Below, in pieces: positions 49,931-51,179 of a DNA stretch of 64,000 nt; within the stretch, counting starts at the first letter, position 1; each line of letters begins with the position of its first letter. The stretch is from Escherichia coli (GTDB lineage Bacteria > Pseudomonadota > Gammaproteobacteria > Enterobacterales > Enterobacteriaceae): the NCBI RefSeq assembly GCF_003334765.1, contig NZ_QOWT01000016.1; one strand, 5' to 3'. Under the pieces are notes generated by a model. It ran no database searches, was not told where the DNA came from, and saw only the letters and a list, made by a program, of their open reading frames with translations. Both the position numbers and the translations under genes were made by a program.

Positions 49931-50003
49931 TACTTAACTGGCGCTACGGCTGATGGCGCCAGTTATTAATTTACCCCACGTCATCTGTCATAACACAGGT
50001 AAC

Positions 50004-50186
50004 TTAAATAAGGTTAATTACCTTATCAATCTCAGCAAGAGGTAAATTTGCCATCTCTGCAACGTCTTCCCGAGACATTCCTTTACTCAGAAGACGCTGG
50101 GCGAATTCCTGACTTACTTCCTGTCTTCCCTGCTGAATCCCCTTCTCAATCCCTTTCTCTTCAAACCACTGCGCCAGCGTCATCAT
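50004..50186 (-). CDS. Candidate intragenic small protein (60 aa) in the rpnC frame
   Basis: In-frame tandem ATG-ATG (50184-50186, 50181-50183) with Shine-Dalgarno-like GGGAGGGGAG 7 nt upstream (plus-strand ctcccctccc, 50191-50200); product MMTLAQWFEEKGIEK...VINLI. Confidence 0.35.
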   Translation of the reverse strand: MMTLAQWFEEKGIEKGIQQGRQEVSQEFAQRLLSKGMSREDVAEMANLPLAEIDKVINLI

Positions 50187-50906
50187 AGACTCCCCTCCCG
50201 TTTCCCTGTCTCTCAACACACCGTAAAACAAATCCGCTTGTTCAGTATGACCGCGTTGCAGCATATAGTTTTGCATGGCAACTAACTGACTTCCGCTAGT
50301 GTACCCTTCGTCGATCAGCGTGACCAGTTGCTCAAGCAATAACATTAAGTCGCGCTGGCGAATATGTTTTTGCAGTAGTTCGAGAATCGCAATCCGCCGA
50401 TGTTGCATGATTTCGTCATCCGGTGTGATGGTGATATCCACCAGCGGGAAAGGACTGTTATAGACGCGTCGCGCCAGCTCCGGCGAGTAAAACATATCAA
50501 ACCAGCACATTGATAGCGGATAAGGTGTGGCCTCGCCCTGATAAAACAGTATCGGCACCACCAGCGGCAGCTTATCGTGGTCAGCCTCCAGATGCCGGTG
50601 CATGGCGGCTATAGAATAACGCATCATGCGAAAGGCCATTTTCTTATCCGGCTTGCTTTGGTGTTCAATCACAACATGCAGATAACCGGGATTGCCCTGC
50701 ATTTGCACGGAATAGAGCACGTCCGTGCTGTGTCCTTTCAGGCTCTCTTCAATGAAACTCCCCGACTCTAAATGAAGCGTGTTGAGGTCACAAAGTTCGC
50801 GTAATTCCACTGGCAAATGTATCTCCAGAAAGTCGCGAGCCGTCTCCGCATGCATTAAAAATTGTTTAAATACCGCGTCATGCGGTGTGGTACTCGGTGC
50901 ATCCAT
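50004..50906 (-). CDS. rpnC: Recombination-promoting nuclease (Rpn / YhgA-like, transposase-like PD-(D/E)xK family)
   Basis: 300-aa ORF MDAPSTTPHDAVFKQFLMHAETARDFLEIHLP...; lies between panC and panD on the opposite strand. Confidence 0.85.
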   Translation of the reverse strand: MDAPSTTPHDAVFKQFLMHAETARDFLEIHLPVELRELCDLNTLHLESGSFIEESLKGHSTDVLYSVQMQGNPGYLHVVIEHQSKPDKKMAFRMMRYSIAAMHRHLEADHDKLPLVVPILFYQGEATPYPLSMCWFDMFYSPELARRVYNSPFPLVDITITPDDEIMQHRRIAILELLQKHIRQRDLMLLLEQLVTLIDEGYTSGSQLVAMQNYMLQRGHTEQADLFYGVLRDRETGGESMMTLAQWFEEKGIEKGIQQGRQEVSQEFAQRLLSKGMSREDVAEMANLPLAEIDKVINLI

Positions 50907-51179
50907 CTTCCCTGTCTTCCGTGTGGCTTTGCGTGAAGGCAGTATCCAGTCAAGGCGCGCTATCGTCAGCCACCTCTTTATTGTTTACCGAGCAGCGTTC
51001 AGAGAAATATCAATTCGTTACAGGCGATACATGGCACGCTTCGGCGCGGTACGCAAACTGCTGACGCAAATGCCGTCAGATGAGTAGACACTAAACAAAA
51101 ATCGGGCAATACTGCGTGAGAATTTCCTCAAAGCAGGCATCGCCTGCTTCGTTAACGACAGGGTAGAAAGGTAGAAGTT

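Follow-up and report, generated by a model that had tools for sequence, protein, structure and literature searches.

rpnC between panC and panD of Escherichia coli: a probable gene-within-gene toxin-antitoxin module in an old insertion

In a 64,000-nucleotide stretch of Escherichia coli DNA (contig NZ_QOWT01000016.1; hereafter the window), panB (48273-49067, + strand) and panC (49079-49930, +) are parted from panD (51180-51560, +) by an open reading frame (ORF) for 300 amino acids on the opposite strand (50004-50906, -). What is this gene, how did it come to lie inside the pan cluster, and what does it do? A sequence-only reading of the stretch had described this split arrangement, with coordinates that were all confirmed, and had seen in the ORF an Rpn/YhgA-like nuclease gene acquired as a selfish or defence-type module. 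The 9,001 bases at window positions 45874-54874 were compared with positions 143000-152000 of E. coli K-12 MG1655 and proved 100% identical to their reverse complement (the whole window corresponds to MG1655 133,874-197,873, reverse strand), and the ORF is annotated there as rpnC (yadD, b0132; MG1655 146968-147870, 100% identical). Its neighbours are the pan genes, the yad fimbrial operon and yadE; 73 bp lie between the panC stop and rpnC, and 273 bp between rpnC and the panD ATG. We consider it probable, with the insertion history and the defence role proposed below taken as parts of the same explanation, that rpnC is a toxin-antitoxin module contained in a single gene, with one coding unit nested inside the other.

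The observation is correct and its interpretation is supported, yet both have been in print since Kingston 2017 (PMC5350276) and Zhong 2023 (PMC10400941). rpnC is a feature of the K-12 chromosome and belongs to the Rpn/YhgA family, which has five genes in that strain; their products were named RpnA-E in the first of these papers; the biochemistry was published in 2017 and the logic of a toxin with an intragenic antitoxin in 2023, and, according to the Kingston supplementary text (PMC5350276), early work on the pan genes had already spotted the ORF as an intruder in the cluster. What is added here is small, i.e., the exact boundaries of the insert, its near-universal occupancy in E. coli together with strong purifying selection, and junction evidence for a single insertion.

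The nuclease and the protein encoded within it

RpnC matched Pfam PF04754 (Transposase_31, YhgA-like) with E=3e-87 over residues 7-207 (50286-50888, -), which covers model positions 1-201 of 203 and includes the PD-(D/E)xK core, and NCBIfam TIGR01784 (Rpn family) with 298.4 bits at a cut-off of 52.1, so that the ORF cannot be a chance one. The score with the RpnA equivalog NF007361 was 311 bits, under the cut-off of 583, as expected because RpnC is a paralogue of RpnA. In alignment A1, which holds six sequences (RpnC, RpnA and RpnB of MG1655, and orthologues from other species), residues D10, D62, E81, Q83, R93 and P162-D163-D164-E165 of RpnC were invariant; D62, E81 and Q83 make up the catalytic core at 50658-50723 (-), and D10, R93 and the PDDE motif (162-165) lie outside that span. 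The first five residues correspond to D11, D63, E82, Q84 and R94 of RpnA, which were found by mutagenesis to be needed for activity (PMC5350276), and the PDDE motif corresponds to RpnA D165. On the profile matches and the conserved catalytic residues, the product is assigned to the PD-(D/E)xK-type Rpn/YhgA nucleases, and here the sequence-only reading was right. Sequence and profile searches of the PDB found no solved structure of an Rpn nuclease domain, the sequence search with RpnC alone returned nothing meaningful, and an AlphaFold model of RpnC made from the six-sequence alignment (mean pLDDT 42.6) was too poor for a fold search.

In vitro, RpnA is a Mg-dependent, Ca-stimulated endonuclease of little sequence specificity, and in vivo the overexpression of RpnC reduced colony-forming units by 59% and induced the SOS reporter dinD-lacZ (PMC5350276). 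By analogy with RpnA, the full-length product of 50004-50906 (-), RpnC_L (300 aa), would thus be a toxic, Mg-dependent DNA endonuclease of little sequence specificity, which, when unchecked, would damage the chromosome so that SOS is induced and viability reduced.

A second coding unit is predicted inside the first. On the minus strand, a Shine-Dalgarno (SD) sequence GGAGG (50194-50198) lies 7 nt 5′ of an in-frame ATG ATG (50198-50181 for the whole array), from which a product of 59-60 aa would be read. This in-frame gene within the gene, rpnC_S (50004-50186, -), runs from M241 or M242 to the stop (60 or 59 aa) and is the reported antitoxin to RpnC_L (PMC10400941). RpnA, RpnB and the orthologues of alignment A1 all have the internal Met, and a profile made from the Rpn alignment matched the RpnA_S chain of PDB 7TH0 (49 residues) with E=3.4e-7, the match starting at the equivalent Met. 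The 103 bp directly 5′ of the internal start (50187-50289, -) are the most conserved DNA of rpnC, with 97-98% identity even to E. albertii, as against 91% for the N-terminal domain; this conservation presumably reflects the embedded promoter and ribosome-binding signals for rpnC_S. A consensus promoter scan gave no minus-strand promoter for rpnC_S, and no convincing internal hexamers were seen by eye. Internal transcription start sites have been reported in rpn genes (PMC10400941), and Meydan et al. (bioRxiv 10.1101/520783) described Ribo-RET peaks at the internal starts of all rpn genes and an enhanced conservation of synonymous sites in yadD.

In the scheme of Zhong 2023 (PMC10400941) the long Rpn proteins act as toxins, and RpnS, the C-terminal part translated from an internal start, as the antitoxin. 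The same paper detected both RpnC_S and RpnC_L by SPA tag and found that RpnC_S stops the induction of dinD-lacZ by RpnC_LS only if the repeat numbers are equal; the KGIE insertion experiment that tested this repeat-number specificity was performed on RpnC itself. Complex formation and a crystal structure of the S domain have been published for paralogues only. The repeats in question are a tract of four-residue units, EKGI, EKGI, QQGR and QEVS (50112-50159, -; EKGIEKGIQQGRQEVS in K-12 RpnC), whose number varies with the strain: among the sampled alleles, other E. coli strains had up to 7 EKG[IM] units, or QE[VE]R units, and RpnC lengths of 296-318 aa. Two of these strains carried an extra standalone RpnC_S-like gene (67-77 aa) and a third a cut-down remnant annotated as a partial transposase, and a second rpnC_S copy downstream has been noted in some strains (PMC10400941). 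We propose that RpnC_S is made as a separate and more abundant product from the internal SD and the ATG at 50186, that its sequence is that of the helical dimerisation domain at the C-terminus of RpnC_L, and that its pairing with this domain would hold the nuclease inactive; the tract would vary from strain to strain because pairing needs the same number of four-residue repeats in both partners.

Boundaries, occupancy and history of the insert

Where the site is empty, a TAGACA -35 box directly follows the panC stop or shares bases with it. In K-12 the ancestral module is at 51085-51179 (+), outside the insert, so that the insert is delimited as 49931-51084, from the panC stop to the ancestral panD promoter (1154 bp, GC 0.493), and the panD promoter region is intact. 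This module consists of a promoter-like element (TAGACA at 51085-51090, a 17-nt spacer and AATACT at 51108-51113), a leader hairpin (51131-51149) and the panD SD, all of which are kept from Escherichia to Cedecea and Buttiauxella. The upstream region of 273 bp that had been credited to rpnC is therefore correct in length and only partly its own, with 178 bp (50907-51084) belonging to the insert and 95 bp (51085-51179) to the ancestral panD promoter and leader.

The ancestral spacer deserves a description of its own. In the 100 nt upstream of panD (loci L003-L081) it consists of a strongly conserved promoter-like TAGACA-17nt-(GGGC)AATACTGCC with a hairpin at a fixed position downstream, the stems of which vary among genera (34 distinct 5′ arms) with pairing retained. 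A hairpin of at least 6 bp was present in 42 of the 47 distinct panD leaders, as against 19% of shuffles, and many had a T-rich tail. With a promoter and then a terminator-like hairpin ahead of panD, the spacer resembles a leader or attenuator; alternatively, it could be the panBC terminator. An Rfam search of 49800-51300 gave no match other than a chance sub-threshold snoRNA, and a search of the literature on the panD promoter or terminator found nothing specific.

At the left end, a perfect hairpin with 10-bp arms (TAACTGGCGC...GCGCCAGTTA; 49935-49965) was picked up between the convergent panC and rpnC stops by the terminator scan and as inverted repeat I15, and its sequence looks like that of a bidirectional terminator; the rpnC-panC pair is listed as a convergent transcript overlap by ExcludonFinder (PMC12288877). 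The hairpin contains the TGG CGC codons that form the C-terminus 'WR*' in the alleles of Pseudocitrobacter and Salmonella enterica subsp. arizonae (S. arizonae), in which the homologous hairpins encode the 'WR*' end of the Rpn ORF or of its remnant. At the right end, just outside TAGACA, CAGATGAG is common to Escherichia and Pseudocitrobacter and TACGCAAACT to all three filled lineages. A candidate rpnC promoter, CTGACG-17-GATACT (50941-50969, -), is shared by Escherichia, Pseudocitrobacter and UBA5654 in alignment A2; the consensus scan reported no minus-strand promoter for rpnC and missed this candidate because it matches only 8 of the 12 consensus positions. Further upstream, the 10-mer AGTTTGCGTA (51051-51060, -) is invariant across the same three lineages amid diverged surroundings and may be a regulator site. 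In E. albertii a 127-bp repeated intergenic element (locus L005, 2622-2748) sits between the panC stop and the hairpin, after TAA TACTTA. The same insertion point in E. coli O157:H7 (L082, 532-~738) holds a longer variant of this element, which accounts for the extra ~220 bp of that strain. The element, unannotated and ERIC/IRU-like in sequence, has a median of 4 occurrences per E. coli genome.

The occupancy of the site was determined in a scan that was anchored on PanC, took one genome for each species and covered 80 Enterobacteriaceae loci. The panC-panD interval was empty in 73 of them (gap of 34-418 bp, without an rpn gene), and an rpn gene was present there only in Escherichia (L002-L005; 93-95% amino acid identity to RpnC for the full-length copies) and in Pseudocitrobacter and UBA5654 (L006, L008 and L010; 63-65%). 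This presence/absence pattern bears out the claim that the module was acquired. Within E. coli the picture is one of fixation: counted at a coverage of at least 80%, nuclease-domain DNA was found in 5420 of the 5426 complete genomes, at a median of one place per genome, and chromosomal copies of rpnC were always at panC-panD. The whole rpnC interval was found in 5224 genomes, fewer because of variation in the C-terminal part and the spacer.

Some departures from this picture were seen on the way. In S. arizonae (L024, 6850-7267) the 418-bp gap contains a frameshifted RpnS-like remnant, its nuclease domain deleted, which, once the frameshift is corrected by hand, ends in 'IIRWR*' within the hairpin and is closest to a Pseudocitrobacter-type allele (33-39% amino acid identity, E ~1e-9 in a small local search). 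Pieces of the locus were also found on plasmids, at 19 places in the E. coli scan; plasmid NZ_OZ392440.1 (L086, 3987-4771) carries a second panD with its promoter region and a 5′ fragment of rpnC, with IS3- and ISL3-family elements close downstream, apparently a captured chromosomal piece. The 4.3-kb contig CALXDF010000219.1 (L002) of an 'uncultured Oscillospiraceae' metagenome-assembled genome, whose panBC-rpnC proteins are 99% identical to those of E. coli, is almost certainly a binning contamination. In E. coli BH212 (NZ_CP029239.1, 146474-149510), otherwise identical to K-12, a copy of IS2 lies inside the rpnC interval, so that laboratory or clinical lineages occasionally have a disrupted rpnC.

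The composition of rpnC is host-like (GC 0.488 and GC3 0.545, with window means of 0.511 and 0.540), and a foreign composition as the mark of a recent transfer was therefore rejected; in this comparison with the window only the codon-adaptation proxy was low, by ~1.5 sd. The sequence-only reading had named presence in all relatives with a host-like composition, and no phenotype on deletion or overexpression, as what would speak against an acquired module; the composition is host-like, but many relatives have an empty site and overexpression phenotypes of RpnC are in print (PMC5350276). The yad fimbrial operon upstream of panB (yadN-yadC, 40991-48159; GC 0.40-0.45, GC3 0.34-0.41) is far more foreign in composition than rpnC.

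Within Escherichia the nuclease domain has a dN/dS of 0.036-0.051, and the dS of rpnC (0.23; 0.41) is near that of panC (0.21; 0.52), the second value of each pair being that of K-12 versus E. albertii. A low dN/dS together with a flank-like dS indicates a functional gene that has passed down vertically together with its flanks. Its acquisition is old and not recent: the gene is fixed in Escherichia, host-like in composition and under strong purifying selection. Between K-12 and Pseudocitrobacter the dS was 1.2-1.7 for the nuclease domain, 1.0-1.1 for panC, 0.9-1.0 for panD and 1.6-2.1 for yadE. The junctions are homologous in the filled lineages at both ends, the left hairpin and the right junction being shared by E. 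coli, Pseudocitrobacter and S. arizonae. We favour a single old insertion over two since non-coding junctions are shared and the dS is flank-like; the chance that the panC-panD rpn genes of Escherichia and Pseudocitrobacter/UBA5654 and the Salmonella remnants all stem from one ancient event nevertheless seems to us about even. Two points weigh against it, namely that the argument from co-divergence is soft because the dS to Pseudocitrobacter is near saturation, and that Kingston 2017 (PMC5350276) favoured two independent insertions; the supplement to that paper gives the presence or absence of the gene at panC-panD in 32 genomes, reads it as two introductions and lists single-insertion alternatives, and the genome comparison that the sequence-only reading had proposed is in this form already in print.

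Under the single-insertion reading, the cassette 49931-51084 would have entered the panC-panD interval in an ancestor of Escherichia, directly 5′ of the existing panD promoter, and entry at this point would have split panBC from panD without disabling either. The cassette, itself without autonomous mobility, would have put a terminator hairpin behind panC, in which the ancestral C-terminus of Rpn ('WR*') survives as a fossil, and the present patchwork would be the outcome of one insertion followed by loss, or by an exchange between filled and empty alleles by homologous recombination in the conserved pan flanks.

Defence, mobility and other readings of the gene

What the module does for the cell is a separate matter. 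We propose an anti-phage defence of the abortive-infection type as the likely role of rpnC, which infection would trigger by upsetting the balance of RpnS and RpnL. The plasmid paralogue RpnP2 protects against T-even phages (Zhong 2023, PMC10400941), and the toxin- or defence-type module of the sequence-only reading is in line with the published toxicity and SOS induction of RpnC (PMC5350276) and with the neutralisation of RpnC_L by RpnC_S (PMC10400941). Several observations count against this proposal and against the activity on which it builds. Phage protection has been shown for RpnP2 only, under special conditions (pH 8.5 or 18 C); the literature contains no phage phenotype for chromosomal rpnC, RpnP2 alone having been assayed; no model of PADLOC-DB v2 recognises RpnC (weak partial matches, E=0.002-0.003); and the gene lies outside any defence island, among the pan genes, the yad fimbrial genes and yadE. 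Moreover, the nuclease activity in vitro was measured on RpnA and not on RpnC (PMC5350276), and RpnC is the weakest among the four active paralogues.

The historical annotation as 'putative transposase' (Transposase_31), the five paralogues of K-12 and the patchy distribution among genera might instead suggest an autonomous selfish element, a novel insertion sequence (IS) or homing-endonuclease-like gene whose C-terminal domain targets panC-panD and which entered there at least two times independently, as the intergenic and flanking-gene trees of Kingston 2017 were read (two introductions at the same site). We judge this very unlikely. A repeat search of 49600-51500 found only short imperfect pairs of 10-24 nt, none of them bracketing rpnC, and neither terminal inverted repeats (ITRs) nor a target-site duplication (TSD), as the sequence-only reading had noted in saying that no inverted or direct repeats were obvious. 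That reading was also right that rpnC is not a classical IS, given the lack of bracketing repeats and its median of one occurrence per E. coli genome. A single copy at the same site in essentially all of the 5,426 genomes gives no sign of recent movement, and rpn genes in general lack ITRs and TSDs, have region ends that vary and were considered unlikely transposases (PMC10400941); no autonomous transposase with this fold is known. The cleavage by RpnA, with its little sequence specificity (PMC5350276), does not suit a site-targeting enzyme, nor do two independent entries suit a non-coding sequence that is homologous at both junctions and a dS near that of the flanks. If the single insertion is true, site-specific self-insertion (homing) by Rpn proteins loses its main argument. 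The comparisons of junctions and dS bear modestly on how non-autonomous cassettes reach the same site in different genera.

It is unlikely, too, that rpnC is a host recombination factor which aids the RecA-independent uptake of foreign DNA and for which toxicity and antitoxin are regulatory side features. Fixation in the species and strong purifying selection would suit such a factor, and a conjugal assay did show 2.9-fold more RecA-independent recombination on RpnC overexpression (PMC5350276); the effect is, however, small for RpnC and needs overexpression, recombination and toxicity were uncorrelated across paralogues or mutants (PMC5350276), and hypervariable self-matching repeats with extra standalone antitoxin copies are typical of conflict systems and not of housekeeping recombination. 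It is hardly credible that the gene has lost its function and is a decaying relic, merely tolerated in its place between the two pan genes, even though S. arizonae holds only the frameshifted C-terminal remnant and some E. coli strains have IS insertions in rpnC or truncations of it: ~99.9% of complete E. coli genomes have an intact ORF, the catalytic residues are all invariant, both RpnC products occur in vivo (PMC10400941), and the low dN/dS of the nuclease domain, together with the occupancy, largely refutes decay. The gene-within-gene toxin-antitoxin module remains our preferred explanation.

Comparison with known systems

RpnC of the window is the same gene as RpnC (YadD, b0132) of K-12, with PF04754, TIGR01784 and COG5464, and shows no difference from it. 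RpnA (YhgA) is 47% identical to RpnC and shares with it the domain order, the D, E and Q residues, the PDDE motif and the internal Met; the C-terminal tails differ, K-12 RpnA having no EKGI/QEVx four-residue repeats at the aligned point, and the in vivo phenotypes of RpnC are weaker than those of RpnA. The plasmid-borne RpnP2_LS (Zhong et al. 2023) belongs to the same family and has the same architecture of long toxin and short antitoxin; protection against T-even phages has been shown for RpnP2, whereas rpnC is a chromosomal gene that is fixed in the species and lies outside a defence island. Insertion sequences resemble rpnC in being single-gene units of patchy distribution, and they differ from it in having ITRs, a TSD and a DDE transposase. 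As in type II toxin-antitoxin systems, a toxic enzyme is paired with a small neutralising protein, but the antitoxin of those systems is a separate upstream gene, whereas that of rpnC is translated in frame from within the toxin gene itself.

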